Source: Burkholderiales bacterium (GTDB lineage: Bacteria; Pseudomonadota; Gammaproteobacteria; Burkholderiales; SG8-41). From it: a stretch of DNA of 64,000 nt. Each line of letters begins with the position of its first letter. The first letter of the stretch is position 1. Positions 9,512-61,923 of the stretch are shown here, in pieces. Position numbers and translations under genes: made by a program. The notes under the pieces were generated by a model that saw only the letters and a program-made list of their open reading frames with translations, searched no databases and was not told where the DNA came from. Location: the NCBI GenBank assembly GCA_019635015.1, contig JAHCAG010000009.1, forward strand, positions 53,735 to 117,734. The letters are read 5' to 3'.

Positions 9512-10492
9512 TCAGTCCGGCCTCGCACCCGAGGCTTTGACCACCGGCGCCCAGCGCGCGATCTCGGCCTTGATGTGCGCGGCAAACTGTTCCGGCGTGT
9601 TGGCTACGGCTTCAGCGCCGTCGGCAGCGAGGCGTTCCCTGACGTCGGCGCGGGCCATGACCTTGACGATGTCGGCGTGCAGCTTGTTGACGATGTCGCG
9701 CGGCACCGCGGCCTGGGTCAGCACGCCGTACCACTGGTTGGCGTCGTAGCCGGGCACGCCGCTCTCGTGGATGGTCGGCACATCGGGTGCGATCGACAGG
9801 CGTTTCATCGTGGCCACACCGAGCAGCTTGAGCCGGTTCGATTTGACATGCGGGCCCAGCGCGACCATGCCGGTGATGGTCATCGTGGTTTCGCCCGAAA
9901 TCATGCTGATCATCGCCGGGGCGGTGCCTTTGTACGGCACGTGCACCATGTTGATCTTGGTCAGCAGCTTGAAATACTCGCCCGCCAGATGCGAGGCGCT
10001 GCCGCTGCCGCCTGAGGCATAGAGCAGTTCGCCAGGCCTTGCCCTGGCCAGCGCAATGAAATCGCGCGCGGTTTTCACCGGCAGCGAGGGGTGCACCGCC
10101 ATGCCGTTGGGCACGGTGGCGAGCACGGTGACCGGCGCGAAATCGCGGATCGCGTCATAGGACAGCTTCGGATACAGGGTCGGATTGACACCGAAGGTGC
10201 CGACATGACCCATGACGATGGTGTAGCCGTCGGGGGCCGCGCGCGCCGCGAGTTCGACGCCGATGGTGCCGGCGGCGCCGCCGCGGTTTTCGACAATGAC
10301 CTGCTGGCCCCAGGCTTCGGTCAGCTTCTGCGCCACCAGCCGCGCCAGCAGGTCCGTGCTGCCGCCGGGCGGAAAGGGTGCGATGAAGCGCACCGGCTTG
10401 CTCGGATAGTTGGCGGCGCTCTGGGCGTAGGTGTTACCCGTGGCGCTGCAGGCAATCAGAGAAATTGCCACCAAGTATTTGATTTTAATCAC
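9512..10492 (-). CDS. Bug-family (TctC-like) tripartite tricarboxylate transporter substrate-binding protein
   Basis: YPSKPVRFIAPFPPGGSTDLLARL..., GHVGTFGVNP and VPYKGTAPA motifs of the Bug family. GTG start preceded by GGAGGAG. The 5' end overlaps AT-rich module copy 1. Confidence 0.9.
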   Translation of the reverse strand: MIKIKYLVAISLIACSATGNTYAQSAANYPSKPVRFIAPFPPGGSTDLLARLVAQKLTEAWGQQVIVENRGGAAGTIGVELAARAAPDGYTIVMGHVGTFGVNPTLYPKLSYDAIRDFAPVTVLATVPNGMAVHPSLPVKTARDFIALARARPGELLYASGGSGSASHLAGEYFKLLTKINMVHVPYKGTAPAMISMISGETTMTITGMVALGPHVKSNRLKLLGVATMKRLSIAPDVPTIHESGVPGYDANQWYGVLTQAAVPRDIVNKLHADIVKVMARADVRERLAADGAEAVANTPEQFAAHIKAEIARWAPVVKASGARPD

Positions 10493-10500
10493 TTATTTTT
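10472..10500 (-). repeat. AT-rich IHF-consensus-like module, copy 1
   Basis: Minus strand reads AAAAATAAGTGATTAAAATCAAATACTTG. The core AATCAAATACTTG fits WATCAANNNNTTR exactly. Overlaps the GTG start and first codons of the Bug gene 9512..10492. Confidence 0.6.
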
Positions 10501-10516
10501 CTCCTCCGGAAGAACT

Positions 10517-11728
10517 TCAAGTTTTCAGGCGCCCATCGTGCGTGGCCCCGGCATCAATCAGGGCCTGGATTTCGCTGTCGGACAGGCCGGCTTCGCGCAG
10601 GATCTCCACGCTTTGCTGGCCCAGTTTCGGCGCCGGACTCCAGCCTTCGCGCAGGCCGCAGGACCACTGGTTCGGCAGCCGCATGCTGCGTGTGCGGCCT
10701 TCGGTCGGGTGGTCCTTCATTTCGAAGAAGCCGATGTCCTGCAGATGCGGGTCCTCGAGCACGCTGTCGAGCGTGTGATAGGGCATGGCCGGCACATCAG
10801 CCTGGTCGAAGATTTCCAGCCATTCAGCGGTGGTCTTGCTTTTCAGTGCGGCCATGCGCACTTCGAAGTAGGCCGCCACGTTGGCGAAGCGCGCCTGCAC
10901 GCTGCAGAAGCGCGGATCGTCTTTCAGTTCCGGCTGGCCGATGGCCTTGAAGAAGGCGAAGGCCTGGTCGTTGGTGTTGGCCGAGATGCAGATCCAGCTG
11001 TCCTTGGTCGGGATCGGCTTGCCCAGCGGGTCGAGCAGCCGCGGGTCGCCGGTTTCACCCAGCGGGGGATCGAAGGTCTTCAGGTACATGTGTTCTTCTA
11101 GCACGAACTTGACGAAGTTTTCGAACATCGGGATTTCGATCGAACAGCCTTCGCCGGTCTTCGCCTTGCGGTAGAGCGCCATGGTGATCATCTGCACCGC
11201 GATCAGGCCCACGGTCTTGTCGGCGACCACCATCGGCACGAAACGCGGCTCGCCGGTGGCGCGGTGGTGCAGGGCAGCCATGCCGGAGGATCCCTGGATG
11301 ATGGTGTCATAGGCCGGTTTGTCGCGGTAACGGCCGTCCTGGCCGAAACCGAACATGCCGCAGTAGATCAGGCCGGGATTGATCTTGCGCACATCCTCGT
11401 AAGAAAGTTTCAGCCGCGCCATCGCCGGCGGGCGCACGTTCCACACCAGAACATCAGCTTTCTCGATCAGCTTCAGCAGCGCGGCATGGCCGCCGGGATG
11501 CTTCAAGTCGAGCACCAGCGAGCGCTTGTTGCGGTTCAGGTGCAGGAATTTCGCGCCCATGCCCGGCGTCACCGACTTGCCGTTCATGTTGCGGATCAGG
11601 TCGCCGGATTTGGTTTCGACCTTGATCACTTCCGCGCCATGGTCGGCGAGGATCTGTGTCGCCAGCGGACCGACCACGACCGAGGTCAGGTCAATGATGC
11701 GCACGCCTTCCAGCGGTCCGCCGGCCAT
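10517..11728 (-). CDS. family III (CaiB/BaiF) CoA-transferase, candidate dicarboxylate (itaconate-type) CoA-transferase
   Basis: GPLEGVRIIDLTSVVVGPLATQILADHGAEVIKVE N-terminal signature. Internal ATG at 11728 chosen; it overlaps the stop of the upstream gene (TAATG). Confidence 0.85.
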   Translation of the reverse strand: MAGGPLEGVRIIDLTSVVVGPLATQILADHGAEVIKVETKSGDLIRNMNGKSVTPGMGAKFLHLNRNKRSLVLDLKHPGGHAALLKLIEKADVLVWNVRPPAMARLKLSYEDVRKINPGLIYCGMFGFGQDGRYRDKPAYDTIIQGSSGMAALHHRATGEPRFVPMVVADKTVGLIAVQMITMALYRKAKTGEGCSIEIPMFENFVKFVLEEHMYLKTFDPPLGETGDPRLLDPLGKPIPTKDSWICISANTNDQAFAFFKAIGQPELKDDPRFCSVQARFANVAAYFEVRMAALKSKTTAEWLEIFDQADVPAMPYHTLDSVLEDPHLQDIGFFEMKDHPTEGRTRSMRLPNQWSCGLREGWSPAPKLGQQSVEILREAGLSDSEIQALIDAGATHDGRLKT

Positions 11729-12579
11729 TACGCGAACTCCGCTTCGGCGGTCAGCGCCAGCGCGCCGGTATCGTCCTGGGCCCACAGTTTTGCGGTCCTG
11801 TTGTCGGCCGAGGGTTCGCCGCAGAGCGTGATGCTGCGGTTCACGAACAGCGCGCGCACGTTGCGCGAGGACATGAATTTCACCGGTGTCGAGCCGTGGC
11901 TGCGCGCCAGTTCGTAGACCAGCAGCGTCGTCAGGCCGCCGTTCATCACCAGGTTGGGATAACCCTCGACGCCCGTGACATAGGGATGGTCGTAGTGGAT
12001 GCGGTGGCCGTTGAAGGTCAGCGCTGAATAGCGGAACAGCATCACCGGGTCCGGCGTGACTTCATGCTGCCACACCGCCTTGCCCGGTGCCGGCTGGGCC
12101 GGGGGTGGCGGCGCGTTCTTGTCGGGTTCGCCGCGGTAGACGATGTCCTGCTCTTCGCTGATCGCCAGTCCGCGCGGGCTCGAGATGTCGGTCTTCACGG
12201 TGACGAACACCATGCGGCCGCTGCGGCCGTCCTTGACCGTCACGTTCTGGATCGTCGACAGGCGCTTGACTTCGTCACCGACCCGCAGCGGCGCGATGAA
12301 AGTCGTGCGTTTGCCGGCGAACATGCGCCGCGGCAGCGGCACCGGCGGCAGGAAGTCGCCGCGCTGCGGATGGCCGTCGGGGCCGATCTGCGAGTGGCGC
12401 ACGATGCGCGGGAACAGCGTGGAGTGCCAGCCGACGGGCAGCGGATCGCCGATCTTCGGGAAGGCATCGTCGCGGTCGAGTGTCGCCGACAGCCGGTCGA
12501 CCATCGGCACGGTGACGTAATCAACAGCGGTTTCGGTGCGGCCGATCCACTGCTTCAGGGATTCGATATCTGCGGTCAT
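11728..12579 (-). CDS. double hot-dog MaoC/FAS1-like acyl-CoA hydratase (itaconyl-/mesaconyl-CoA hydratase-like)
   Basis: About 284 aa. N-terminal FAS1-like dehydratase region plus a C-terminal MaoC-like region (LFRYSALTFNGHRIHYD). Sits between a dioxygenase and a CoA-transferase. Specific substrate is inferred only from context. Confidence 0.6.
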   Translation of the reverse strand: MTADIESLKQWIGRTETAVDYVTVPMVDRLSATLDRDDAFPKIGDPLPVGWHSTLFPRIVRHSQIGPDGHPQRGDFLPPVPLPRRMFAGKRTTFIAPLRVGDEVKRLSTIQNVTVKDGRSGRMVFVTVKTDISSPRGLAISEEQDIVYRGEPDKNAPPPPAQPAPGKAVWQHEVTPDPVMLFRYSALTFNGHRIHYDHPYVTGVEGYPNLVMNGGLTTLLVYELARSHGSTPVKFMSSRNVRALFVNRSITLCGEPSADNRTAKLWAQDDTGALALTAEAEFA

Positions 12580-12646
12580 GCGGTTGCCTTGATTGTTGCG
12601 GATGAAGAACCGCAATTTTAAGTCAGGGATTGTGCCTGGCGGGAAT

Positions 12647-13498
12647 TCAGCGGCCGAGGCGGAAGTCGAACTCCACACTGTGATAGGGCAGCGGCAGCCG
12701 GTAACGCTGCGCCAGCGCGGGATCGCTGCCCGTTTGCGGATTGACCAGCAGCGATTCGCGCACGCCGAACACCGCGTCCTCGTCGATATAGCGGTCGTCG
12801 GCGAAAAACACCTCGGTGGTCAGCGCGCGGAATCCTTCGGCACTGACGATGAAATGGAAATGCGCGGGCCGCCAGGCATGGCGGCCGCCGGCACGCAGCA
12901 GATCACCGACCGGACCGTCGTAGGGCACGGTGTACGGCGCGGGGCGCACGGTGGTGAAGGAGTAGGTGCCGTCATCACCGGTGACCATGCGGAAGCGCAG
13001 GTTGTCGGGACTCTGTTCCGGGTCCTGCTGCCAGTACTTGCCGTTGACCGCGGCCTGCCAGAAATCGAGCTGTGCCCGGGGAACCGGCCTGCCTGCGGAG
13101 TCGACGACGCGTCCCCGCACCAGCATCGGCTCGCCGGCGTTGTCGCGCTTCAGGTCGCCGCCGACCTCCAGCATCGGCGACCCTTCGGCGTGGAAGGGGC
13201 CCAGCGCGCTGCGTTCGGTGGCGCCGGCACCGCTGGCGAGCAGATCGACCAGCGACGACAGGCCCATGACGTCCGACAACAGCACGAATTCGTTGCGCGC
13301 GTCGGTGGAAATTTTGCCGGCGGCGTGGAGGAAGGCGATGCCGCGCTGCCACTCCTCGGGCGTGAGCCGGGTCTCGCGCGCGAAGGCATGCAAGTGCTGG
13401 ACCAGTTTTGCGATGATTTCGCGCAGCCGCGGGTCGGCGGCGCCGTCGAAGGAGCGGACGACGGCCTGCGTGATGCTGTCGGCGTTGACGGATCTCAT
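12647..13498 (-). CDS. intradiol ring-cleavage dioxygenase (catechol/hydroxyquinol 1,2-dioxygenase family)
   Basis: N-terminal dioxygenase helical domain (ADPRLREIIAKLVQHLHAFARETRLTPEEWQRGIAFL). Core motifs GRVVDSAGRPVPRAQLDFWQAAVNGKYW and RPAHFHFIVSAEGF. Internal ATG at 13498 chosen. Confidence 0.85.
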   Translation of the reverse strand: MRSVNADSITQAVVRSFDGAADPRLREIIAKLVQHLHAFARETRLTPEEWQRGIAFLHAAGKISTDARNEFVLLSDVMGLSSLVDLLASGAGATERSALGPFHAEGSPMLEVGGDLKRDNAGEPMLVRGRVVDSAGRPVPRAQLDFWQAAVNGKYWQQDPEQSPDNLRFRMVTGDDGTYSFTTVRPAPYTVPYDGPVGDLLRAGGRHAWRPAHFHFIVSAEGFRALTTEVFFADDRYIDEDAVFGVRESLLVNPQTGSDPALAQRYRLPLPYHSVEFDFRLGR

Positions 13499-13505
13499 CG
13501 CCTGC

Positions 13506-14477
13506 TCAGTCGACGCGGGCGCCGGACTGTTTGACGATCTGGGCGTATTTCTCGACCTCGCTGCGCAGCCGCTTGGCGAACTCGGCCGGCGTATTGGGCT
13601 CGAATTCCAGCGACAGCGCGGCAAGGCGCTCCTTCGCCGCCGGCGATTGCAGCGCTGCGGTGAAGTCGCGGTTGACCTGGCTGACCACCGCGGCAGGAAT
13701 GCCCGCCGGCGCAAACACTGAGAACCAGGTGTAGTCGTCAAAGCCCGGGAATCCGGATTCGGCGACTGTGGGCACCTCGGGCAGCACTGCGGAGCGTTTT
13801 GCGGTGGTCACCGCGATCGCGCGCAGGCGTCCACTCTTGACGTGAGGCACCGCCGGCGGCATCGAGGTCGAGCCCACCGGCACCTGGTTGGCGACCACCG
13901 CGGTGGCTGCCGCTGCCGGGCTGTACGGCACATGCGTGATGTCCACCTTGGCCAGGGTCTTGAACAGCAGTTCCATGTCGAGGTGCGGTGTGGTGCCGAT
14001 GCCCGAGGAACCGTAGGACAGCGGTTTTGATCTGGCCAGCGCGAGCAGTTCCTGCAGCGTCTTGACCGGCAGTGAGGGATGCACGGTGATCATGTTCGGC
14101 GTGGTCGGCCCCTGCAGGATCGGCGTGATTTCCTTCATTGAATAGCCGGGTTTGGAATACAGCGTGACGTTCACCGCGATCGCCGAGCTGTTCATGAACA
14201 GCGTGTGTCCGTCGGGATTGGCACGCAGCGCAATCTGGGTGCCGATGTTGCCGGAGGCGCCGGGGCGGTTTTCGATCACCACGTTCTGTCCCCAGATCTC
14301 GGTCAGGCGTTCGCCGACGACCCGCGCGACGATGTCGGTCGAACTGCCGGGCGGGAAGGCAACGATCACGCGCACCGGCTTGGTCGGAAATTTTGCAGTG
14401 CCCTGCGCGGCGGCAGGCATTGCTGCAGCAAACAGTACGGATGCTATTAAGTATTTGATTTTATTGATATTTTTCAT
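13506..14477 (-). CDS. Bug-family (TctC-like) substrate-binding protein
   Basis: FPTKPVRVIVAFPPGSSTDIVARV... and VPYSPAAAA motifs. GGGAGGAG RBS upstream of the ATG at 14477. N-terminus MKNINKIKYLIA is encoded by AT-rich module copy 2. Confidence 0.9.
   Translation of the reverse strand: MKNINKIKYLIASVLFAAAMPAAAQGTAKFPTKPVRVIVAFPPGSSTDIVARVVGERLTEIWGQNVVIENRPGASGNIGTQIALRANPDGHTLFMNSSAIAVNVTLYSKPGYSMKEITPILQGPTTPNMITVHPSLPVKTLQELLALARSKPLSYGSSGIGTTPHLDMELLFKTLAKVDITHVPYSPAAAATAVVANQVPVGSTSMPPAVPHVKSGRLRAIAVTTAKRSAVLPEVPTVAESGFPGFDDYTWFSVFAPAGIPAAVVSQVNRDFTAALQSPAAKERLAALSLEFEPNTPAEFAKRLRSEVEKYAQIVKQSGARVD
14448..14474 (-). repeat. AT-rich IHF-consensus-like module, copy 2 (closest to the family consensus)
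   Basis: Minus strand reads AAAAATATCAATAAAATCAAATACTTA. The core AATCAAATACTTA is a perfect consensus match. Encodes residues KNINKIKYL of the Bug gene 13506..14477. Confidence 0.6.
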
Positions 14478-14561
14478 GACTCCTCCCAATGCGCGACAAC
14501 GGGCCGCCGCCGCGTCGCGCCATCCTAGCTGACCGCGGCCGGAAAGAGAATCGTCATGAAG

Positions 14562-14583
14562 GGCGCCGGCATGAGCCGGCGCC
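14562..14583 (-). terminator. 9-bp perfect GC hairpin downstream of the lyase gene (possible intrinsic terminator or attenuator)
   Basis: GGCGCCGGC-ATGA-GCCGGCGCC lies 8 nt after the stop of 14591..15502. The downstream tract on the minus strand is only moderately T-rich. Confidence 0.35.
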
Positions 14584-14590
14584 TGCGGTC

Positions 14591-15502
14591 TCAGCCCTTC
14601 ATTGCGGCGAGTGTCCGGGACTCGCGGGCGGTGATGGCGTCGTAGCGTTTGAGCAGGCGCTGCGCGCGCACGATGATCGGGATGTCGATCATCTTGCCGT
14701 CGAGCGCGAAGGACGCGCGGCCTGCCGCAGCGGCTTCCTTGTCCAGCGCGATGACCTTGCGCGCGTATTCGACCTCGGCGGCACTCGGCTTGTATTCCTC
14801 GTTGACGATGGTGACCTGGCCGGGATGGATGCAGCCGGCGCCCATGAAACCGAAGTCGCGCGAGCGGCGCACCATCTTGCGGAAGTTGTCCCAGTCGCCG
14901 AAGGTGGCGACGCTGTCGACGAAGCCCAGCGGCATGATGCCGGCGGCGCTGGCGGCGAAAATCATGTGCTGTTTCGGATAAAACAGCGCCTCTCCCGTCG
15001 GCTGCATGCCGCAGTTCAGTGCGTAGTCTTCACCGCCGATGTTGCAGGCGATGATGCGGCTGGTCGCGGTGGTGATTTCACGGATTTTGAAAAACGCCTC
15101 CGGCGTTTCGATCATCGTGATGAACTTGGTGTGGCCGACCGTCATGCCGCGTTTCTGTTCCAGCTCGCTGACCAGTTCGTCGAGCAGCTGCAGGTGCGAC
15201 ACGCCGGTGGCCTTGGTCACTGCAATGCCGTCGACGTCGGGGCACACCGAATGCTCGATGTCACGCACCGCCAGCGACAGCGGCTGGTTGATGCGCACCA
15301 CCACATCGGCGCCGCCGCGGCGTACTCGCGCGGCGTTTTTCTCGACCAGCTTGCGCGCATTGGCCTTCTCGGCGGGCGGCACGCTGTCCTCGAGGTCGAG
15401 CTGGATCACGTCGGCGCCGCGGGTGTGGGCCTTGTCGACGTATTTCTCGACGTTGACCGGGACGTACATCAGCGAGCGCCAGACGGGAAGTTCACGATAC
15501 AT
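14591..15502 (-). CDS. HpcH/HpaI aldolase / CitE-like acyl-CoA lyase (citramalyl-/malyl-CoA lyase-like)
   Basis: RSLMYVPVNVEKYVDKAHTRGADVIQLDLEDSV and later GFMGAGCIHPGQV motifs typical of the citrate lyase beta / CitE family. Confidence 0.8.
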   Translation of the reverse strand: MYRELPVWRSLMYVPVNVEKYVDKAHTRGADVIQLDLEDSVPPAEKANARKLVEKNAARVRRGGADVVVRINQPLSLAVRDIEHSVCPDVDGIAVTKATGVSHLQLLDELVSELEQKRGMTVGHTKFITMIETPEAFFKIREITTATSRIIACNIGGEDYALNCGMQPTGEALFYPKQHMIFAASAAGIMPLGFVDSVATFGDWDNFRKMVRRSRDFGFMGAGCIHPGQVTIVNEEYKPSAAEVEYARKVIALDKEAAAAGRASFALDGKMIDIPIIVRAQRLLKRYDAITARESRTLAAMKG

Positions 15503-15547: not shown

Positions 15548-16798
15548 TCATTCTTCGCCGGCGGGCGCGGCATCACCCGCGCAGGCAATGCCGGCTTCGA
15601 GGAGCCTGCGGTAGGCCGCGGCGTCGATGCCGGCTTCAGCCAGCAGGGACTCGTTGTGTTCGCCGAGTTTCGGCGCCGGGCTGCGGATTGCCGCCGGCGT
15701 GCCCGACAGCCGCGGCACCACATGGTGCATCGGAAAGTCGCCCATGTCCTCGTCCGGATAGTCGGCGAGGATTTCTCGGGCTGCGAAATGCGGATCCTCG
15801 AAAATCTGCCGGATGTCGTAGATCGGGCCGATGGTGACCTCGGCTTCTTCGAAAAAGGCGACATTTTCGGCCTGGGTGCGCTGCGCGACGAAGTCGCCGA
15901 TCACCGTATCGAGTTCCTCGGCATGTTTCACCCGTTCCTCGTTGGTGGCGTAACGCGGATCAGTGATGAACTCGGGGTGGCCGATCGAGCGGAACAGGCG
16001 CTCGGCCATTTTCTGGGTCGACGAAGACAGGCAGACATAGAGTCCGTCCTTGCACCGGTAGGCGTTGCGCGGCCCGGCATTGGTCGAGCGGCTGCCGGTG
16101 CGCGGCTTGACCTTGCCGGTCAGGCGGTAATTTGCGGCCTGGGGCCCCAGCACCGCGAACAGCGGATCGAGCAGCGGCAGGTCGATGACCTGGCCTTTGC
16201 CGCCGTTGGTTTCGACTTCACGCAGCGCGGCCATTGCGGCCGCCGCGCCATAGAGTCCGGCAACGGTGTCGGCGAGGTACATCGGCGGCAGCACCGGTTC
16301 GCGGTCGGCGAAACCGTTGAAGGAAGCGAAACCCGACATGCCCTCGACCAGCGTGCCGAAGCCGGGACGCCGGCTGTAGGGGCCGTCTTGGCCCCAGCCA
16401 GAAATGCGCACGATCACCAGCTTCGGATTGAGCTTCAGCAGTTCGTCGGGCCCGAGGCCCATCTTCTCCAGCGTGCCGGGGCGGAAGCTTTCGATGAACA
16501 TCTGTGCCGAAGGGACGAGTTTTTTCAGCAGCTCGCGCGCTTCCGGTTTGCGCAGCTCGAGTCCCAGGCTTTTCTTGCTGCGCGCGTAGAGTTTCCAGTT
16601 GGTCTGGACGTCTTTGGTTTTCCAGGCACGCAGCGTGTCGCCGGCTGGCGGCTCAACCTTGATCACCTCGGCGCCGAAGTCGGCGAGAAACTGGGTCAGG
16701 GTGTTGCCGGCGACCAGCCGCGACAGGTCGAGCACACGCAGGCGGTCAAGTGTGCCGCGTGCGTCCGGTTCGTAACTTCTCCGGGGCAGTTCAGCCAT
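15548..16798 (-). CDS. family III (CaiB/BaiF) CoA-transferase, second paralog
   Basis: LDRLRVLDLSRLVAGNTLTQFLADFGAEVIKVEPP signature. Internal ATG at 16798 overlaps the stop of the upstream Bug gene (TAATG), the same junction architecture as at 11728. Confidence 0.85.
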   Translation of the reverse strand: MAELPRRSYEPDARGTLDRLRVLDLSRLVAGNTLTQFLADFGAEVIKVEPPAGDTLRAWKTKDVQTNWKLYARSKKSLGLELRKPEARELLKKLVPSAQMFIESFRPGTLEKMGLGPDELLKLNPKLVIVRISGWGQDGPYSRRPGFGTLVEGMSGFASFNGFADREPVLPPMYLADTVAGLYGAAAAMAALREVETNGGKGQVIDLPLLDPLFAVLGPQAANYRLTGKVKPRTGSRSTNAGPRNAYRCKDGLYVCLSSSTQKMAERLFRSIGHPEFITDPRYATNEERVKHAEELDTVIGDFVAQRTQAENVAFFEEAEVTIGPIYDIRQIFEDPHFAAREILADYPDEDMGDFPMHHVVPRLSGTPAAIRSPAPKLGEHNESLLAEAGIDAAAYRRLLEAGIACAGDAAPAGEE

Positions 16799-18642: not shown

Positions 18643-18863
18643 AAGCTTAGTCCGAATCGTGAGACTGGGGAGCCGGGATTATGCCACCGTGTCCGCTCTG
18701 GCGGAATAGCTGTCCCTGTGGTATCTTTTTTGCAGCTGTTTTTGAATAAAAAATCCGATTCGTCCAGATTCCGGACGGCCGCCCGGGCGGCCATCCGGGC
18801 TTTCGGGCGTTCGCATGCCGGCAACGCCCGCGCTGCCGCCGCCTTTCCGACAGGAGTTCTGCC

Positions 18864-19748
18864 ATGACCGTTTCCCTGACCCCGGGCGCGAAATTCCGCG
18901 CCGCGGTTGCCGCCGAAAAGCCGCTGCAGATCGTCGGTGCCATCAATGCCTACCATGCCCGGCTTGCCCAGCGCAGCGGTTTCAAGGCGATCTACCTGTC
19001 GGGCGGTGGTGTGGCCGCCGGTTCGCTGGGCGTGCCCGATCTCGCGATCAGCACGCTCGATGACGTGCTGACCGACGTGCGCCGCATCACCGATGTCTGC
19101 GACCTGCCGCTGCTGGTCGACGTCGATACCGGCTTCGGCGGCGCCTTCAACATTGCGCGCACCGTGAAGTCGCTGATCAAGTTCGGCGCCGCGGCGATGC
19201 ACATCGAAGACCAGGTGATGCAGAAGCGCTGCGGCCACCGTCCGAACAAGGAAATCGTCAGCAAGGAGGAAATGGTCGATCGCATCAAGGCATCGGCCGA
19301 TGCCAAGACCGACGCCAACTTTGTCATCATCGCGCGCACAGATTCGCTGGCAGTGGAGGGGTTGGACGCTGCGGTCGAACGCGCGGTGGCCTGCGTCGAG
19401 GCCGGCGCCGACATGATTTTTCCGGAGGCGATCACCGAGCTGTCGGAGTACAAAAAATTCGCCGATGCGGTGAAGGTGCCGATCCTCGCCAACATCACCG
19501 AGTTCGGCAAGACGCCGCTGTTCACGACCCAGGAACTCGCCGGCGCCAACGTCGCGATGGCGCTGTATCCGCTGTCGGCCTGGCGCGCGGCCAATGCCGC
19601 GGCGCTGAAGGTCTACCAGAGCATCCGCAAGGAAGGGCACCAGAAAAACGTGGTTGACCTGATGCAGTCGCGCGACGACCTCTACGACTATCTCGACTAC
19701 CACTCGTACGAGCAGAAACTCGACGCGCTGTTCAAGCGCGACAAGTAA
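18864..19748 (+). CDS. prpB: 2-methylisocitrate lyase
   Basis: Near-collinear similarity, from memory, to E. coli PrpB: [80 protein letters not shown]. Confidence 0.85.
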
Positions 19749-23216: not shown

Positions 23217-24305
23217 ATGAAACCCAGCATCGCCGCCAAACTCGATCAACTGTCCAATCGCCTGGAGGAGATCAATCGCCTGCTGGGCAGCGAGTCCGCG
23301 ACGGCCAGCATGGACAATTACCGCAAACTCACGCGGGAACATGCCGAGCTGGGTCCGGTGGTCGAGCTCTATCGCGCCTACCAGAGCAGCCATGCCGACC
23401 TCAAAACCGCGCAGGAGATGGTCAACGATCCGGCGATGCGTGAATTCGCCGAAGTTGAAGTCGCGGAAACCCGCGCGCGGCTGGAGGGTTACGAGGCGGA
23501 ACTGCAGAAACTGCTGCTGCCGAAGGATCCCAACGACGAGCGCAATATCTTCCTCGAGGTGCGCGCCGGCACCGGCGGCGACGAGTCGGCATTGTTTGCC
23601 GCGGAACTGTTCCGCATGTACGCGCGTTACGCCGAGCGCAAGCGCTGGCAGGTCGAAATCATTTCTGAAAGTCCGTCGGACCTCGGCGGTTACCGCGAGA
23701 TCATTGCCCGCATCATCGGCCACGGCGCCTATTCGAAACTGAAATTCGAATCCGGCGGCCACCGCGTGCAGCGCGTGCCGGTGACCGAAACCCAGGGCCG
23801 CATCCACACCTCGGCCTGCACGGTGGCGGTGATGCCGGAGGCGGACGAGGTGGCCGAGGTCGTGCTCAATCCGGCGGAGCTGCGCATCGACACCTTCCGC
23901 GCCTCGGGTGCCGGCGGCCAGCATGTCAACAAGACCGATTCGGCGATCCGCATCACCCACCTGCCGACGGGGCTGGTGGTCGAATGCCAGGACGACCGCT
24001 CGCAGCACAAGAACAAGGCGCGCGCGCTGGCGGTGCTGGCGGCGCGGCTGAAGGACAAGCAGACCCGCGAACAGCAGTCGAAGGAAGCGGCGACGCGCAA
24101 ATCGCTGATCGGCAGCGGCGACCGCTCCGAACGCATCCGCACCTACAACTTCCCGCAGGGCCGCGTCACCGACCACCGCATCAACCTGACGCTGTACAAG
24201 ATTGCGCAGATCATCGACGGCGATCTCGACGATCTGGTCGATGCGCTGGCATCGGAACACCAGGCGGAGCTGCTGGCGCAACTGGCCGAAGAGCAGGGTG
24301 TTTGA
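23217..24305 (+). CDS. prfA: peptide chain release factor 1
   Basis: GGQ motif ([21 protein letters not shown]) and overall RF1 layout. Confidence 0.95.
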
Positions 24306-24334
24306 TAACCATTTGATTTTATTTATATTTTTAT
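24306..24334 (-). repeat. AT-rich IHF-consensus-like module, copy 3
   Basis: Minus strand reads ATAAAAATATAAATAAAATCAAATGGTTA. The core AATCAAATGGTTA is a perfect consensus match. Fills most of the 40-bp prfA-prmC spacer. Confidence 0.6.
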
Positions 24335-30046: not shown

Positions 30047-30091
30047 CGCCCAAACAAGGGCTAGACCTGGCTTTCCCCTTCTTGATCGGGC

Positions 30092-30118
30092 ATAAAGTAC
30101 AATAAAAACAATGATTTG
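30092..30118 (+). repeat. AT-rich IHF-consensus-like module, copy 4 (diverged)
   Basis: ATAAAGTACAATAAAAACAATGATTTG. The core AAACAATGATTTG has one mismatch (T to A). Lies in the divergent xsc / FAD-FeS promoter region, 10 bp from the LacI-type palindrome. Confidence 0.45.
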
Positions 30119-30127
30119 CTGACCTTT

Positions 30128-36391: not shown

Positions 36392-36874
36392 TTAGCGCCC
36401 GGGTGCGCGCATGCGGGCGAGACCCGCCTCGATGGCCTGTTCGATATACAGCTGGTAGAAGTCCTCCGCCAGCAGGCCGGTGATCGGCGGTGCGGCCTGC
36501 CTGCCGTCGGCATCAAACACGATCAGCGTCGGCACGCGGCGCACACCGAGGCTGCGGGCAAACGCGCGGTGGGTTGTCCGGTTGCCGGCAAAGTCGCGCA
36601 GCGGCGTGCTGCGGTCGGTTTCAATCTCGAGAATCCGCACACGGTTGCGCCACTGCGGGTCACTCTGCAGCGGAAGCAGGTGATCGCGACGCGCCACCGC
36701 GCAGTACGGACAGGATTGCTGCATGAAGGCGATCAGCAGCGGTGCACCGCGGGACCGGGCCTCGGTTGCCGCGCGCAGGAGGTCATCCGCCGGCTGTAAC
36801 TGGGCGTGGACCGGGGCCGTTGCGAGCAGCATGCATGCTACAATCAGGGCCGCGAGTCGATCAAAAATATTCAA
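36392..36874 (-). CDS. periplasmic thioredoxin-fold protein (CPYC motif)
   Basis: C-terminal part of the long minus ORF: ...[19 protein letters not shown] signal-like segment, then [20 protein letters not shown] and [11 protein letters not shown]. Start is uncertain: in-frame TTG at 36874 or 36883, with no clear RBS. Confidence 0.6.
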
Positions 36875-36890
36875 TAAAATCAATATGATA
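36862..36890 (+). repeat. AT-rich IHF-consensus-like module, copy 5
   Basis: CAAAAATATTCAATAAAATCAATATGATA. The core AATCAATATGATA has one mismatch. Spans the head-to-head starts of the thioredoxin-fold gene (-) and hemC (+). Confidence 0.55.
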
Positions 36891-37838
36891 GAAAGAAATG
36901 TCGAGCAGCGCCCGGAAACCCTGGTGATCGCCACCCGCGAGTCCGCTCTGGCCCTGTGGCAGGCGCGGCATGTGCAGTCGGAGTTGCAGCGATTATATCC
37001 GGGGCTGCGGGTCTCATTGCTCGGCATGACCACCGAGGGTGATCGCAATCTCGGCAGTTCGCTCGCCAGGATCGGCGGCAAGGGCCTGTTCGTCAAGGAA
37101 CTCGAAGATGCCCTGGCCGACGGCCGCGCCGACATCGCGGTGCATTCGATGAAGGACGTGCCTATGCATCTGCCCGCGGGATTTGCGCTGGCGGCGATCC
37201 TCGAGCGCGCCGATCCGCGCGATGCTTTCGTATCCGTGAAGCACCGCGGACTTGGGCAGCTGCCGCCCGGCGCCCGTGTCGGCACATCGAGCCTGCGCCG
37301 CGAATGCCAGCTGCGCGCGCAGCATCCGCAACTCGTCATCGAAGCGCTGCGCGGCAATGTGCAGACCCGGCTGCGCAAGCTCGACGAGGGGCAGTACGAC
37401 GCGATCATCCTTGCCGCCGCCGGGCTCAAGCGGCTGGGTCTGGCCGAACGCATCACCGCGCTGCTGCCGCCGGAGGCCAGTTTGCCGGCGGTTGGCCAGG
37501 GGGCGCTGGGCATCGAATGCCGGGAAGATCGCGGCGACCTGATCGGCTTGCTGGCCCCGCTGGTGCATCCGCCGACCCGGCAATGCGTGCTCGCCGAGCG
37601 TGCATTTTCAAGGACACTGGCCGGCAGTTGCAACGTGCCCTTGGGTGGATTCGCGGAAATTTCCGGCGGGCGCCTGTTCCTGCGCGGTCTCGTCGGCGCG
37701 CCCGATGGTTCACGGGTCGTACGCGGCGAGACTGGCGGTGCGGCCGGCGATGCGGAAACCATCGGCATTGCGCTTGCCGAAGACCTGAAGCGCCGCGGCG
37801 CTGCGGACATCCTCGCCGCGCTTGCGCGGGACGCATGA
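36885..37838 (+). CDS. hemC: hydroxymethylbilane synthase (porphobilinogen deaminase)
   Basis: [29 protein letters not shown] and TSSLRR motifs. ATG at 36885 chosen by N-terminal comparison with E. coli HemC. Confidence 0.9.
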
Positions 37839-45612: not shown

Positions 45613-45949
45613 GCGGGGGCGAAGGCCCCTTGCGTTGCGAATCAGCGGTCAATTCCGGCCGTCATGCGCTGATATCAAGGCTTTAATACACCAATTTCTG
45701 TTAATTATCATCAGATCATCCGGGCGAAAGAGGGCCGGGGAGAGGCCGTGCCCAGCCTGAAATGGCGTCGATGCGCAGTCGCCCATGCGGTCCAGCGGGC
45801 AGAAGGTTAACGTCCGTTAAATCCTATTCTATTGTGGACTTTTCCCGTTAACTTAAGGCAAAATCCGCCAACTTTCGTCAGATGGGCGTTGAGGAGCTGC
45901 GGCCCGGATGCCATGGGCCGATGTGGCCATCGTTATAATTGCGAACATC

Positions 45950-50231: not shown

Positions 50232-50263
50232 GTCCGACCCGCGCCCCGGACCGTTTTATGCTA

Positions 50264-50291
50264 TAAATAATTGATTTTATTGATATTTTTT
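50264..50291 (-). repeat. AT-rich IHF-consensus-like module, copy 6
   Basis: Minus strand reads AAAAAATATCAATAAAATCAATTATTTA. The core AATCAATTATTTA is a perfect consensus match. Lies 13 bp upstream of the gcvH ATG. Confidence 0.6.
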
Positions 50292-50303: not shown

Positions 50304-50693
50304 ATGAGCGCCCCTGAACACCTGAAATACACCTCCAGTCATGAATGGGTGCGCCGTGAGGCCGACGGCAGCGTCAGCATCGGCATTACCCAGCATGCGC
50401 AGGAACAACTGGGCGATGTAGTGTTCATCGACAACCCGCAACCGGGACGGCGTGTGGAGCAGGGCGAGGAATGCGGTGTCATCGAATCCGTAAAGGCGGC
50501 GGGCGACATCCATGCGCCGGTATCCGGCGAAATCGTCGCCGCCAATGCCGAACTGGCAGACGTGCCCGAGAAAATCAACGAGGATCCGTACGCGGCGTGG
50601 ATGTTCCGCATCCGGCCCTCCGATCCGGCGCAGATCGACGCCTTGCTCGATGCTGCGGGTTACCTCAAGGCGGTCGGATCGGGGGACGGCTGA
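50304..50693 (+). CDS. gcvH: glycine cleavage system H protein (lipoyl carrier)
   Basis: LKYTSSHEWVR and the lipoylation motif VIESVKAAGDIHAPVSGEIV. Confidence 0.9.
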   Translation: MSAPEHLKYTSSHEWVRREADGSVSIGITQHAQEQLGDVVFIDNPQPGRRVEQGEECGVIESVKAAGDIHAPVSGEIVAANAELADVPEKINEDPYAAWMFRIRPSDPAQIDALLDAAGYLKAVGSGDG

Positions 50694-50828
50694 ACAGCCG
50701 CAGCCTCGCGGTGCCCGGCGCCGCAGCAACACGAACGCAACATGCGCCTGTCAGGATCGCGCCGCCATGCGGCCGGATGTCCGGCCCGCGGTGGACAACT
50801 GCAGAAGCAGATGGGGAGATGGCCGACG

Positions 50829-51215
50829 ATGGATTCCGCACAGGGTGGCGAAAGCCCGCACAAAGGCAAGACCGGACTGAAGCGCGTGTACAACGCGTTT
50901 TTCTACTCGATGGACGGTCTGCGCGCCGCATTCCGCCACGAGGATGCCTTTCGCCAGGAAGTCCTGCTCGCGGCACTGCTGATCCCGGCCGCGCTGTTCA
51001 CGCCCGCCTCCGGCACCGGCAAGGCCATGATGATTGCGGCGGTGCTGCTGGTGCTGATCGTCGAACTGCTGAACTCGGCGGTGGAAGCCGCAGTTGACCG
51101 CATTTCGCTGGAGAACCACGCGCTGGCCAAGCGCGCGAAAGACATCGGCAGCGCCGCGGTGTTTCTCGCGCTGGTCAACGTGCCGCTGGTGTGGGTCTTG
51201 GTGCTGTTCGGCTGA
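50829..51215 (+). CDS. dgkA: diacylglycerol kinase
   Basis: GLKRVYNAFFYSMDGLRAAFRHEDAFRQE and ELLNSAVEAAVDRIS motifs. The start (50829 versus 50811) is not resolved. Confidence 0.85.
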   Translation: MDSAQGGESPHKGKTGLKRVYNAFFYSMDGLRAAFRHEDAFRQEVLLAALLIPAALFTPASGTGKAMMIAAVLLVLIVELLNSAVEAAVDRISLENHALAKRAKDIGSAAVFLALVNVPLVWVLVLFG

Positions 51216-51350
51216 TTTCCGCGCGCCGCCGCCCGGCTGTCGCGCAACTGTCATTCCGCTGTCACCGCCGCGTCGCATCGCCGCGGCAGGATGCGCGTCA
51301 TGGACGGCGCAGACATCGTGTTGCAGCATTATCCGGCGGCCGTGCGCAGG

Positions 51351-52514
51351 ATGCGCGTGGCGATGGTCACCGAGACCTATCCGCCGGAAATCAACGGCGT
51401 GGCGATGACCATGGGCCGCATCGTCAGCGGATTGCAGGCGCGCGGCCACGCGGTGCAGCTGATCCGCCCGCGCCAGCATGCCGGCGACCAGCCCGCCGAC
51501 CAGCCGCTGTTCCAGGAAGTGCTGCAGCGGGGCATGCCGATCCCGCGTTACGATGCACTGAAGCTCGGCCTGCCGGCGAAACAGGCGCTGATGCGGTTGT
51601 GGGCGACGCGCCGGCCCGACATCGTGCACGTGGTCACCGAAGGCCCGCTCGGCTGGTCGGCGCTGGCCGCAGCCTCGAAACTGAAGCTGCCGGTGGCGAC
51701 CGATTTCCATACCAATTTCCACAGCTACAGCGCGCATTACGGCGTCGGCTGGCTGAAGACGCCGATCACCGCCTATCTGCGCAAGTTCCACAACAGGGCC
51801 TTGCGCACGCTGGTGCCGACCGAAAGCCTGCGGCAGGAACTTCAAGCGCTCGGGTTCCGCAACCTGCAGGTGGTTGCGCGCGGTGTCGATACCGCGCTGT
51901 TCAATCCCTCGCGGCGCAGCGCCGCGCTGCGCGGGGAGTGGGGCGCCGCCGCGGAGGATCCTGTTGCGCTGTACGTCGGCCGGCTGGCCCCGGAAAAAAA
52001 CCTGCCGCTGGTGCTGCGCGCTTACGCGCTGATGCGCGAGCTGCAGCCGCGGCTGAAGCTGGTGATGGTGGGTGACGGCCCCGAGCGCGGGCGCATCGAG
52101 CGCGAGAACCCCGGCGTGCTGTTCGCCGGCATGCGCACCGGCGAAGATCTGGCCGCGCATTACGCCTCAGCCGACATTTTCCTGTTTCCCAGCCTCACCG
52201 AAACCTACGGCAACGTCACCGTCGAGGCGATGGCGAGCGGACTGGCGGTCATCGCCTACGACTATGCCGCCGCGCAGCAGCACATCCGCAGCGGCGAGAA
52301 CGGGCTGCTTGCGGCGCCTGGAGCCGCTGATGACTACGCGCAGGCCGCAGCCGCCCTAGCCATCGATCTGCCGCGCGCGCGCCGGCTCGGCGGACAGGCA
52401 AGGAGGACCACCGAAAAGCTCGACTGGTCGTGCATCGTTGCCGAATTCGAGGATGCCCTGCTGGCGCTGACCGGCGACGCCGGCGAAGGGGAGGCTGTGC
52501 ATGCCCGTGCTTGA
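51351..52514 (+). CDS. GT4-family (group 1) glycosyltransferase
   Basis: MRVAMVTETYPPEINGVAMTM N-terminus and the C-terminal FPSLTETYGNVTVEAMASGLAV (EX7E-type) motif. Confidence 0.85.
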   Translation: MRVAMVTETYPPEINGVAMTMGRIVSGLQARGHAVQLIRPRQHAGDQPADQPLFQEVLQRGMPIPRYDALKLGLPAKQALMRLWATRRPDIVHVVTEGPLGWSALAAASKLKLPVATDFHTNFHSYSAHYGVGWLKTPITAYLRKFHNRALRTLVPTESLRQELQALGFRNLQVVARGVDTALFNPSRRSAALRGEWGAAAEDPVALYVGRLAPEKNLPLVLRAYALMRELQPRLKLVMVGDGPERGRIERENPGVLFAGMRTGEDLAAHYASADIFLFPSLTETYGNVTVEAMASGLAVIAYDYAAAQQHIRSGENGLLAAPGAADDYAQAAAALAIDLPRARRLGGQARRTTEKLDWSCIVAEFEDALLALTGDAGEGEAVHARA

Positions 52515-53025
52515 GCGGTTTGCACACTGGGATCTGCAGCTCTGCCTGCGTGTCAACCGCGTCTGCCGGCGGGTCAGCTGGCGCATGCTGTTCCGCTGTG
52601 TCAGCGTTCTCGGCGACGGCCTGTTCTGGTACGCGCTGATGGCGGCCCTGCTGGTCGCCGGACGCGATGCCGCGGTGACCCCGGTGTTGCACATGATGGC
52701 GGTTGGCCTGGCCTGCAGCTTCGGCTACAAGTGGCTGAAGGCACGCACCCTGCGGCCGCGGCCGTACCAGGTGCATGCGGACATCGAACGTTTCGCGGTG
52801 CCGCTCGACCGCTTCAGTTTTCCCTCGGGTCATACACTGCATGCGGTGGCCTTCACGCTGGTGGCGCTGGCCTACTATCCCGCGCTGGCCTGGCTGCTGT
52901 GGCCGTTCACGCTGCTGGTGGCGCTGTCGCGGGTGGTGCTGGGCCTGCACTATCCCAGCGACGTGCTGGTCGGTGCTGTGCTGGGGGCTGCGCTGGCGCT
53001 GCTGTCACTCCAGATCGCGCCATAA
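52501..53025 (+). CDS. PAP2-family phosphatase (membrane)
   Basis: Acid-phosphatase motifs KARTLRPRP, FPSGHT and SRVVLGLHYPSD. 14-nt overlap with the glycosyltransferase gene. Confidence 0.85.
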   Translation: MPVLERFAHWDLQLCLRVNRVCRRVSWRMLFRCVSVLGDGLFWYALMAALLVAGRDAAVTPVLHMMAVGLACSFGYKWLKARTLRPRPYQVHADIERFAVPLDRFSFPSGHTLHAVAFTLVALAYYPALAWLLWPFTLLVALSRVVLGLHYPSDVLVGAVLGAALALLSLQIAP

Positions 53026-53047
53026 AATAATTTAAAAACAAATACTT
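53021..53047 (+). repeat. AT-rich IHF-consensus-like module, copy 7 (diverged)
   Basis: ATAAAATAATTTAAAAACAAATACTTG. The core AAACAAATACTTG has one mismatch. The module contains the TAA stop of the PAP2 gene. Confidence 0.5.
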
Positions 53048-53117
53048 GCGATAGATCCTGCCTGAAAGACGGACACGTCCTCAGCCGGCGCATCCGTCGA
53101 TACCGTCGGTCGCCAGC

Positions 53118-53543
53118 CTATTTCTTCAGGGCGTCGCGGATTTCACGCAGCAACAGAACATCTTCCGGCGTTGCCGCCGGCGCTGCGGGCGCAGCCTCTT
53201 CCTTGCGCTTCATGCGATTGATCGCGCGGATCAGCAGAAACACTGCGAAGGCGACGATGATGAAGCTGATGCAGGTGTTGATGAACATGCCGTAGTTGAA
53301 GGTCACCGCGCCGGCCTTCTGCGCCGCGTCGACCGACAGGTACGGGCCGGGCATCGCGCCTTCCCGCATCACCAGGAACAGGTTCGAGAAATCGACCTTG
53401 CCGAGCAGCAGGCCGATCGGCGGCATGATCACGTCCTTCACCAGCGACTCGACGATCTTGCCGAATGCCGCGCCGATGATGATGCCGACGGCCATGTCGA
53501 CAACGTTGCCGCGCATCGCGAATTCCCGGAATTCCTTGAGCAT
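53118..53543 (-). CDS. mscL: large-conductance mechanosensitive channel
   Basis: [31 protein letters not shown]... GGGAGGGA RBS upstream of the ATG at 53543. Confidence 0.95.
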
Positions 53544-58301: not shown

Positions 58302-58310
58302 TGCTAGAAT
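58302..58310 (+). promoter_or_regulatory. extended -10 promoter element TGCTAGAAT for tRNA-Arg
   Basis: TGCTAGAAT ends 12 nt upstream of the mature tRNA 5' end. Confidence 0.45.
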
Positions 58311-58322
58311 GCCGACCGCAAC

Positions 58323-58399
58323 GCGCCCGTAGCTCAGCTGGATAGAGTACTGCCCTCCGAAGGCAGGGGTCGGACGTTCGAATCGTCTCGGGCGCGCCA
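58323..58399 (+). tRNA. tRNA-Arg (anticodon CCG)
   Basis: Cloverleaf read by eye: acceptor GCGCCCG/CGGGCGC, D-arm TAGCTCAGCTGGATAGAGTA, anticodon stem CTGCC/GGCAG with loop CTCCGAA, T-arm GGACGTTCGAATCGTC, encoded CCA. Confidence 0.9.
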
Positions 58400-58432
58400 A
58401 ATTCCGTATCCCGCACGCCAGTCCATGCCGAC

Positions 58433-60660: not shown

Positions 60661-60673
60661 GCGCGGCTGAAGC

Positions 60674-61891
60674 ATGACTGCAGGAAAACATTCGGCGCGC
60701 CGGCTCACCGCCACAATGTGCGGCGCCGAAGTGCTGTCGATGACCGGCTTCGCCGCCTACACCACGCTGCTGCCCCAGCTGCAGCGCGAATGGGGATTGT
60801 CGAACTCCGAGGCCGGCGCGATCAGCGGTTTCCTGTTCGCGGGCTACATGCTGTCGGTGCCTGTGCTGACCAGCCTCACCGACCGCATGGATTCGCGGCG
60901 CATCTATCTCGCCGCCTGCCTCATCGGCAGCCTCGGTGCGGCATTCTTTGCGTTTTTCGGCGCAGGATTCTGGAGCGCGGCCTTCGCCCAGTTCCTGATC
61001 GGCGCTGCGCTCGGCGGAACCTACATGCCGGGGCTGAAGGCGCTGACCGACCACCTCGAGGGCGCGGCGCAGTCACGCGCCACTGCGTTTTACACCGCAA
61101 GTTTCGGCGTCGGCTCGACGATCTCGATCCTCGTCGCCGGCAAGATCGGCGCCACCATCGACTGGCACTGGGCGTTCTGGTTCGGCGCGATCGGTCCGGT
61201 GCTGGCGGGACTGCTGGTCATGTTTGCAATGCCGCCGGGCCGCATGCGCGCGGCGGAACAGCATGCCACCGCGCTGCTTGATTTCCGTCCGGTGCTGAAG
61301 AACCGGAAAACCCTGCCGTACATCATCGGTTATGCCGCGCACAACTACGAACTCTTCGGCCAGCGCTCGTGGATGGTTGCCTTCCTCGTGTTCTGCGCGG
61401 CACTGCAGCCCGAGCATGCGCCGATGGCGCTGAGCGCGGCGACACTGGCGGCGATGATCAACGTGCTGGGGCCGGTGTTCAGCGTCACCGGCAACGAGAT
61501 GGCGATCCGCTTCGGCCGCCAGCGCATCATTTTCCTGTTCATGACCCTGTCCGGGGCGATTGCCTGCCTGATCGGGTTCAGCGCAGCCTGGCCCTGGTAC
61601 ATCGTGGTCATGCTGATGATGGTGCACTACGGTGCGATGCTTGGTGATTCCGGCGCGCTGACTTCAGGCGCAGTCGCCAGCACGCCGCCGGAAATGCGCG
61701 GCGCGATGATGGCGGTTTATTCCTTCCTGGGTTTCAGCACCGCCTTCCTCGCGCCGCTGGTGTTCGGCCTGACGCTGGATCTGGCCGGCGGGAACCAGAG
61801 TGTCACGGCCTGGGGGCTGGCCTTTGCCAGCATCGGCATCTTCGGTCTGCTGTCGCCGCTGGCGCGCTGGTGGTATTTGCGTAGAGCATAA
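60674..61891 (+). CDS. MFS transporter
   Basis: About 12 predicted hydrophobic segments and the LTDRMDSRRIY loop motif between TM2 and TM3. Confidence 0.8.
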   Translation: MTAGKHSARRLTATMCGAEVLSMTGFAAYTTLLPQLQREWGLSNSEAGAISGFLFAGYMLSVPVLTSLTDRMDSRRIYLAACLIGSLGAAFFAFFGAGFWSAAFAQFLIGAALGGTYMPGLKALTDHLEGAAQSRATAFYTASFGVGSTISILVAGKIGATIDWHWAFWFGAIGPVLAGLLVMFAMPPGRMRAAEQHATALLDFRPVLKNRKTLPYIIGYAAHNYELFGQRSWMVAFLVFCAALQPEHAPMALSAATLAAMINVLGPVFSVTGNEMAIRFGRQRIIFLFMTLSGAIACLIGFSAAWPWYIVVMLMMVHYGAMLGDSGALTSGAVASTPPEMRGAMMAVYSFLGFSTAFLAPLVFGLTLDLAGGNQSVTAWGLAFASIGIFGLLSPLARWWYLRRA

Positions 61892-61923
61892 AAATACCAA
61901 TAAAAACAAATACTTAAATAATT
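61888..61923 (+). repeat. AT-rich IHF-consensus-like module, copy 8
   Basis: ATAAAAATACCAATAAAAACAAATACTTAAATAATT differs from copy 2 at only 2 of the central 26 positions. The core AAACAAATACTTA has one mismatch. Contains the TAA stop of the MFS gene. Confidence 0.6.

Follow-up and report, generated by a model that had tools for sequence, protein, structure and literature searches.

AT-rich modules with the anatomy of integration host factor sites recur at gene boundaries in a lineage of uncultured Burkholderiales

What are the short AT-rich modules that recur at gene edges in a 64,000-nucleotide stretch of a Burkholderiales bacterium genome (contig JAHCAG010000009.1 of assembly GCA_019635015.1, positions 53,735 to 117,734; hereafter the window)? 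The original prediction, made from the sequence alone, described eight of them, each with a core fitting the Escherichia coli consensus for integration host factor (IHF), and proposed a genome-wide architectural or regulatory element, that is, a site for IHF or another nucleoid protein or else a small repeat family. We found that this proposal is supported by the abundance of the modules, their bias toward gene edges, their conservation and the four-element anatomy that they share. As far as sequence can indicate, they would be selected high-affinity sites for IHF, a heterodimeric protein that bends DNA, or for a closely related DNABII protein that recognises DNA with the same geometry, a reading to which we assign a probability of roughly 0.65.

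An IHF site has been described as 34 bp long, with a WATCAA element, a TTR element, two steps (mostly AA) 9 bp apart at which prolines intercalate, and, within its 5' half, an A-tract of 4-6 bases (PMC1874591); the A-tract stabilises the full U-bend of IHF-bound DNA (10.1101/382655). We aligned 104 copies of the module and observed a conserved block from position -5 to about +31, tAAAAATATCAATAAAAWCAAATACTTAtaawwwwC, with a sharp return to background on both sides (position numbering starts at the A of ATATCAAT). The conserved unit within it, tAAAAATATCAATAAAAWCAAATACTTAtaa, is about 34 bp, and the 26-30 bp first given for the module falls short of the 34-36 bp that are actually conserved. All four canonical IHF elements are present in the unit, and in register. 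A five-A tract occupies positions -4 to 0 in the 5' half (0.58-0.98 A), AA steps lie 9 bp apart at 5-6 and 14-15, a WATCAA-type core at 10-15 reads AAWCAA, and TTR follows at 20-22, four bases past the core. Among 69 non-seed sites, the step at 5-6 was 0.80 and 0.70 A, C13, A14 and A15 were 88-100% conserved, T20 and T21 reached 0.91 and 1.00, and position 22 was always a purine (A 0.93, G 0.07). Information in these sites peaked at A9-A11, C13-A15 and T20-T21, with less in the four bases between core and TTR (N4); the weaker ones retained only the A-tract and AAAAWCAA-N4-TTA, with N4 variable. A variable N4 and a purine-only position 22 are what IHF recognition predicts.

The modules are far too frequent in the window to have arisen by chance. 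The exact core WATCAANNNNTTR occurred six times where dinucleotide shuffles gave 0.37, and 0 of 100 shuffles reached six, in keeping with the earlier estimate of fewer than one perfect core by chance. The family-specific core AAAWCAANNNNTTR was present eight times (0.13 expected). A position weight matrix (PWM) built from the eight copies returned eight window matches at 41-54 bits, and the next best score was 18.8, so that eight is the complete count for the window and not the lower bound it had been taken for. All eight were located at the coordinates and on the strands first reported, and they still scored 25-58 bits when the matrix was retrained on related genomes. The window, at 65% GC, contains ten AT-rich islands (at least 23 of 30 positions A+T), eight of which are family copies, and this points to a specific sequence rather than general AT-richness. 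At prfA loci outside the lineage, AT-rich islands were similarly dense (1.25 per 10 kb), and none had the family sequence. Chance and AT-richness were thus both rejected as the origin of the family by the shuffles, the core counts and the island tally, as the original prediction had anticipated; a PWM scan of the window together with related DNA (about 0.8 Mb) also gave a strong excess over shuffled controls.

The six exact WATCAANNNNTTR matches comprise copies 1, 2, 3 and 6, the same four that had been credited with an exact core, together with a site at 45673 and one at 1923-1935. WATCAA is accordingly matched exactly by the core of four of the eight window copies. The IHF-consensus core that had been described is therefore present, with the qualification that its third base may be A or T. 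The eight copies, with their scores under the retrained matrix, are as follows.

10467..10499, minus strand: copy 1, weak (26 bits), AAAATAAGTGATTAAAATCAAATACTTGGTGGC, with the exact WATCAANNNNTTR core
14443..14475, minus strand: copy 2, strong (50 bits), GAAAAATATCAATAAAATCAAATACTTAATAGC, with the exact WATCAANNNNTTR core
24301..24333, minus strand: copy 3, strong (51 bits), TAAAAATATAAATAAAATCAAATGGTTATCAAA, with the exact WATCAANNNNTTR core
30091..30123, plus strand: copy 4, weak (25 bits), CATAAAGTACAATAAAAACAATGATTTGCTGAC
36863..36895, plus strand: copy 5, weak (31 bits), AAAAATATTCAATAAAATCAATATGATAGAAAG
50259..50291, minus strand: copy 6, strong (56 bits), AAAAAATATCAATAAAATCAATTATTTATAGCA, with the exact WATCAANNNNTTR core
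53021..53053, plus strand: copy 7, weak (34 bits), CATAAAATAATTTAAAAACAAATACTTGCGATA
61889..61921, plus strand: copy 8, strong (58 bits), TAAAAATACCAATAAAAACAAATACTTAAATAA

To place the sites relative to genes, we called genes with a codon-usage model, which agrees with Pfam and with the deposited gene calls on three related loci (L203-L205; L numbers label related loci and contigs throughout). The family showed a strong bias toward gene boundaries. Among 136 strong sites, 96 were no more than 30 nt from a called gene end, 38 contained a stop codon, supplied by the motif's TAA at -5 to -3 or, on the other strand, by the TTA at 20-22, 11 contained a start codon, and 2 lay deep in a called gene. 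Many copies were inside operons or overlapped start or stop codons. The 114 strong sites in spacers were divided into 85 co-directional, 24 convergent and 5 divergent, against a baseline of 485, 95 and 90 spacers, respectively. Convergent spacers were enriched, with 21% of strong sites between convergent genes, and the 5 sites in divergent spacers compare with 15-25 expected (p = 0.001 by spacer count, 1e-7 by bp). In co-directional spacers, 46 sites were antisense and 35 sense (p = 0.27), and sites were closer to the upstream stop than to the downstream start in a ratio of 54:29 (median 13 versus 43 nt). A motif that is indifferent to orientation and avoids promoter regions would be expected to act at the level of DNA rather than through the RNA.

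Conservation at orthologous spacers was examined at the prfA-prmC locus and at the gcvH, MFS and mscL spacers, and copies were retained at all four. At prfA, the motif follows the stop codon in the same orientation in the window, in L036 and in 6 of 7 loci with at least 85% identity in release factor 1 (RF1); the orthologous copies are those of L036, L122, L123, L125, L126, L129 and L130. In the seventh locus, L124, the motif has been degraded through point substitutions relative to L130. Among the eight orthologous copies, the core had a pairwise identity of 0.93, the 5' arm 0.72, N4 0.50 and the 3' tail 0.31, while the 1.00 obtained for TTA is inflated, since TTA is the prfA stop codon in 3 of the 8. 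Fourfold-degenerate sites of prfA in the same eight genomes were 0.59 identical, so N4 evolves at about the neutral rate (0.50 versus 0.59), and its 4-bp spacing is held by compensating changes (CAA-ATGG-TTA versus CAA-TGGC-TTA).

For the other three spacers we used 20-kb loci (L203, L204 and L205) that were retrieved through their MscL homologues, without selection for the motif, and that are syntenic with 43-63 kb of the window. The gcvH copy (copy 6) was found in the same place and orientation in all three. The copy at the end of the MFS gene (copy 8) was present in L042, L203 and L204 and missing from L205, and the copy at the end of mscL (copy 7) was present in L203, 69 nt from the mscL stop, and missing from L204 and L205. 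L041 carries a copy where the window has none. From the copies retained at the prfA, gcvH, MFS and mscL spacers we conclude that the sites are old and vertically inherited, that purifying selection acts on them with a profile shaped like that of IHF, and that they are occasionally lost.

The genes next to these copies change between relatives. The window (61916-61964) and L042 (1209 onward) are similar up to exactly the 3' end of copy 8 and no further. L204 (1485-2246) has a FitA/PIN toxin-antitoxin pair beside the MFS gene in place of the DUF2889 gene, so that the motif of copy 8 remains with the MFS gene while the neighbouring gene changes. Gene content between gcvH and mscL also differs from one close relative to another (50700-53100 of the window; about 10400-13400 of L203, L204 and L205), being DAGK-GT4-PAP2 in the window, AhpC-DAGK-GT4 in L203, AhpC-DAGK in L204 and nothing in L205. 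Genes have thus been gained and lost repeatedly in this small hotspot, which copies 6 and 7 bracket.

We then asked how widely the family is distributed. A scan with the exact pattern ATAYMAATAAAAWCAAWTAYTT, limited to one genome per species, yielded at least 120 tiles of 8 kb. Approximately 85% of the tiles listed were from uncultured Burkholderiales or Betaproteobacteria metagenome-assembled genomes (MAGs) of 56-68% GC, some of them labelled Bordetella, and several MAGs gave multiple tiles among the matches listed; the remaining tiles listed were single chance matches in AT-rich genomes, without flanking conservation. In 744 kb of tiles plus the window (about 0.8 Mb), 171 sites scored 15 bits or more with the retrained PWM, while a Markov shuffle of 0.8 Mb produced a single match above 5 bits. 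Family density was about one site per 8-13 kb, and lineage DNA that was not retrieved through the motif gave 8 sites in 64 kb (the window) and 7 sites in 61 kb (the three loci found through MscL). Outside the lineage the result was very different. Scanning metagenomes with the RF1 protein of the window recovered 80 orthologous prfA loci, and the 73 of these at 74-82% RF1 identity, an out-group of 382 kb, contained 0 PWM matches and 0 core matches, against 7 matches in 39 kb of in-group prfA loci. The family is therefore restricted to, and an innovation of, one uncultured Burkholderiales lineage. That lineage is common in metagenomes, as MscL homologues at 85-95% identity fell into more than 100 clusters.

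Other searches returned little. Across 5,426 E. coli genomes, similarity to the family was limited to chance-level matches (E of 0.6 or worse). The one match to a viral contig was on a contig of 27% GC and was attributed to chance, and a phage link was dropped. E. coli IhfA and IhfB sequences gave no tblastn match in the window or in the scattered 8-kb tiles (about 0.8 Mb from many genomes), an uninformative sample for that search. No earlier description of the family was found in the searchable literature, the coverage of which is incomplete.

Among known systems, one that is close in form is the H'-type IHF site of phage lambda, which is likewise a 34-bp asymmetric unit with a 5' A-tract, AA-type kinks 9 bp apart, WATCAA, and TTR four bases on (PMC1874591; 10.1101/382655). 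The family differs in that its third core base is A in about two-thirds of copies, that the ATATCAAT segment is also conserved, and that its sites number hundreds per genome at gene ends instead of belonging to one recombination or promoter complex. In the H' 35-mer the A-tract starts 14 nt 5' of W, as it does in the family. In distribution the family resembles the RIB/RIP (BIME-1) elements of E. coli, repeated on the chromosome, in which an IHF site occupies the L linker between inverted repetitive extragenic palindromic (REP) sequences. These elements lie where transcription units end, on the 3' side, and a part in DNA structure and, with gyrase, in the topological insulation of positive supercoils has been proposed for them (PMC3333891; 10.1101/2020.08.24.264499). 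Our family shows the same bias toward gene 3' ends and away from divergent promoters. It has, however, no flanking REP palindromes or other flanking conservation, no sequence similarity in E. coli and no link to a RAYT-type transposase; since the palindromes and the similarity are both lacking, the family is not a member of RIB/BIME-1. IHF sites in promoters, such as sigma-54 promoters, share the consensus core, but those predicted in Dickeya reach a higher density in AT-rich promoter regions between divergent genes, where the family is depleted. An association with sigma-54 was rejected, as TGGCAC-N5-TTGCW had 30 matches in the window against 38 expected and none adjoins a copy.

Because the sites occur in either orientation, lie near stop codons, are rare in divergent regions and lack terminal repeats and palindromes, we regard them as DNA-level sites for a protein rather than as promoters, RNA elements or transposons. 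A non-autonomous, copy-and-paste mini-repeat resembling REPs or miniature inverted-repeat transposable elements, with the IHF-like sequence as a passenger or a host factor for mobility, is an unlikely alternative that nevertheless accounts for several observations. The family is abundant and lineage-restricted, its strong copies are near-identical over 33 bp, which is more than an IHF consensus needs, and its distribution is REP-like, frequent at 3' ends and between convergent genes and rare between divergent ones. Presence also varies among relatives (L205 is without the MFS and mscL copies and L204 without the mscL copy, and L041 has an extra one), and synteny with L042 breaks exactly at the end of copy 8. 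Other observations weigh against a copying process. Across the 104 aligned copies there were no terminal repeats, flanking motif, flanking palindromes or consistent target-site duplication, the logo was at background outside -5 to +31, and the ends of the unit had no inverted symmetry. Folding energies of the flanks matched controls, hairpins beside the motif were not enriched, and no transposase gene is associated with the family. Orthologous copies have kept place and orientation despite 59% identity at fourfold-degenerate sites, their conservation profile tracks the IHF consensus, loss has proceeded through point substitution (L124 versus L130) and not clean excision, and strong sites grade into weak ones, as binding sites would.

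Equally improbable, in our estimation, is a site for some other lineage-specific protein, whether a nucleoid protein, a regulator reading an ATCAAT-AAA-ATCAAT direct repeat or an H-NS-like protein that nucleates on AT-rich DNA. In its favour, only one lineage has the family although IHF is widespread, bases outside the IHF elements are conserved as well, the third core base is mostly A, and the sequence shows an imperfect direct repeat 9 bp apart. Against such a protein, the second half-repeat is usually ACAAAT, which makes the direct repeat poor, fixed C positions and fixed spacing do not fit generic AT-rich nucleation, and four IHF elements stand at exact spacing in a unit 34 bp long whose N4 and position 22 vary just as predicted for IHF. 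We consider a signal in transcription or in the transcript, such as a TATAAT-like promoter, a terminator U-tract, or an AU-rich translation enhancer or RNase E site in transcripts that are otherwise GC-rich, to be very improbable. Positions 21-26 do often read TATAAw, and several copies overlap start codons or precede them by 11-16 nt, but orientation to the flanking genes is random, with the 21% of strong sites between convergent genes already mentioned, no -35 element stands at 16-18 bp, the last T of the -10 is T in only about 42% of sites, and a promoter scan gave no match at the copies. A terminator fits single cases such as copy 8, where a hairpin followed by the T-rich strand resembles the terminator of a minus-strand gene, while flank hairpins are no more frequent than in controls; and one DNA motif on either strand would yield different RNAs. 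A DNA uptake signal for natural transformation, comparable with the uptake sequences of Pasteurellaceae (USS) or Neisseriaceae (DUS), would likewise be limited to a lineage, independent of orientation, strongly conserved, over-represented and common at gene ends. We regard it as the least probable of these explanations, given a density of about one per 8-13 kb instead of about one per kb, the near-absence of sites within genes (2 of 136 strong sites deep), the lack of inverted pairs and the coincidence that so detailed a match to an IHF site would demand.

The IHF-type reading has difficulties of its own, and several observations weigh against it. The conservation profile was drawn from PWM-anchored alignments, which favour high-information columns. 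At the third core position 65-70% of sites have A, a departure from WATCAR, albeit a tolerated one. In the strong copies almost all of the 33 positions are conserved, among them the ATATCAAT segment between A-tract and core, where E. coli IHF is not known to prefer any base, and ATAC; conservation of these two goes well past the published IHF consensus. A further constraint, another protein or some form of copying could lie behind conservation on this scale. Finally, IHF is near-universal in Proteobacteria and yet sister lineages lack the sites, which leaves something lineage-specific unexplained.

If the modules are IHF-type sites, the match to known sites suggests that the DNA would make a U-turn around the bound dimer. 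The sites would act in either orientation, on the DNA level, at short gene-end spacers. They could then serve as architectural punctuation of the chromosome, with about one site per 8-13 kb, either by compaction or as a local barrier to transcription-driven supercoiling or to read-through between neighbouring genes. By analogy with the known systems, an architectural role at gene ends seems most likely. More doubtful, although worth stating, is the suggestion of a dedicated chromosome punctuation in which hundreds of near-maximal U-turn sites would work as topological insulators or protein roadblocks between neighbouring genes, filling without REP palindromes the part proposed for BIMEs in enterobacteria, or in which the sites would have a lineage-specific reader other than IHF.

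IHF sites and IHF-binding 3'-end repeats are known from enterobacteria. The present lineage offers a cleaner natural experiment, with stand-alone sites that are not confounded by REP palindromes and are stark against 60-68% GC. The sites are near the idealised four-element form, are lacking in sister lineages and have been kept at the same spacers over long divergence. They make it possible to address selection for a U-turn at a gene end, the specificity of IHF in Betaproteobacteria and the origin of a family with no obvious mobility mechanism. The motif is also a sharp metagenome marker for the lineage, and it explains odd AT-rich codons at some gene starts there. Lineage restriction, orientation independence, the stop-codon bias and the depletion in divergent promoter regions all go beyond the original prediction.

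The individual contexts of the window copies bear out the claim that every one sits at a gene edge, gene calls and Pfam being in agreement. The two copies that had been placed in the first codons of Bug genes are copies 1 and 2. Copy 1 spans the GTG start (10492) and first codons of a TctC/Bug gene (9512-10492) and lies 17 nt beyond the stop of a CoA-transferase gene (10517-11728). Copy 2 falls within the first codons (MKNINKIKYLIA) of a second TctC/Bug gene (13506-14477), 115 nt downstream of the end of an HpcH-type aldolase gene, and L097 has the same TctC/Bug arrangement. These two genes encode the motif in their signal-peptide N-regions (MKNINKIKYLIA and VIKIKYLVA), and the DNA site is thus retained even where codons are constrained. 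Paralogous Bug N-terminal coding sequence was considered as the origin of the family and rejected; it fits copies 1 and 2 only, and the motif also occurs after stops and between convergent genes. A 3,032-bp Logan contig (L001, SRR12908307) is 100% identical to 12322-15353 of the window and encodes the TctC protein of copy 2 exactly; no other public contig with that protein was found.

Copies 3-6 occupy short or divergent spacers, as had been reported for the copies other than those at Bug starts and stop codons. Copy 3 fills the prfA-prmC spacer, where its 3' end overlaps the prfA TGA stop (24303-24305) and it ends 12 nt ahead of the prmC ATG (24346), antisense to both genes. Copy 4 lies in the divergent spacer between a flavin adenine dinucleotide (FAD)-oxidase/iron-sulfur gene (27035-29962, minus strand) and a thiamine pyrophosphate (TPP)-enzyme gene (30275-32044, plus strand). 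Copy 5, in which the 5' arm is one base longer and ATA stands at the TTR position, occupies the spacer from which a thioredoxin-like gene (36392-36832, minus strand) and hemC (36885-37838, plus strand) diverge, and it includes the hemC ATG. A LytTR-type response-regulator gene (35636-36373) ends 490 bp upstream of copy 5; LytTR-type sites are 9-bp repeats 12 bp apart, and the family motif is unlike them. Copy 6 is in the spacer between a DUF3426 gene (end at 50231) and gcvH (start at 50304), 12 nt ahead of gcvH and antisense to both.

Copies 7 and 8 are the two that were said to hold stop codons, and both do. Copy 7 includes the TAA of the PAP2 gene (53023-53025), with the end of the convergent mscL gene (53118-53543, minus strand) 64 nt off, and copy 8 includes the TAA of the MFS transporter gene (61889-61891) and faces the convergent DUF2889 gene (61964-62521, minus strand). 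On the minus strand, a hairpin at 61923-61941 (TCCCGGACTCAATCCGGGA) and the T-rich strand of copy 8 together resemble an intrinsic terminator of the DUF2889 gene, for which the motif may double as a U-tract.

Three further sites in the window resemble the family in part. The original prediction had noted a look-alike near 18740, but the PWM excludes that AT-rich island from the family. It lies within 18719-18755, just downstream of TGGTATCTTTTTTGCA (18719-18734, plus strand), which fits the sigma-54 -24/-12 pattern with 2 mismatches and belongs to the AT-rich spacer that precedes the gene at 18864-19748, earlier called prpB. The match at 1923-1935 (AATCAACGAATTG), which had been missed, is inside a called gene (1528-2589), and it is probably due to chance since it lacks an A-tract and scores low with the matrix. 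The further perfect core reported at 45673-45685 (TATCAAGGCTTTA) is indeed exact, although it stands alone, without an A-tract, and is a non-member by PWM; the 296-bp spacer that holds it is flanked by a redoxin gene and aroQ (type II dehydroquinase), and the orthologous spacer of L205 contains a weak family site (24 bits, 15770-15802).

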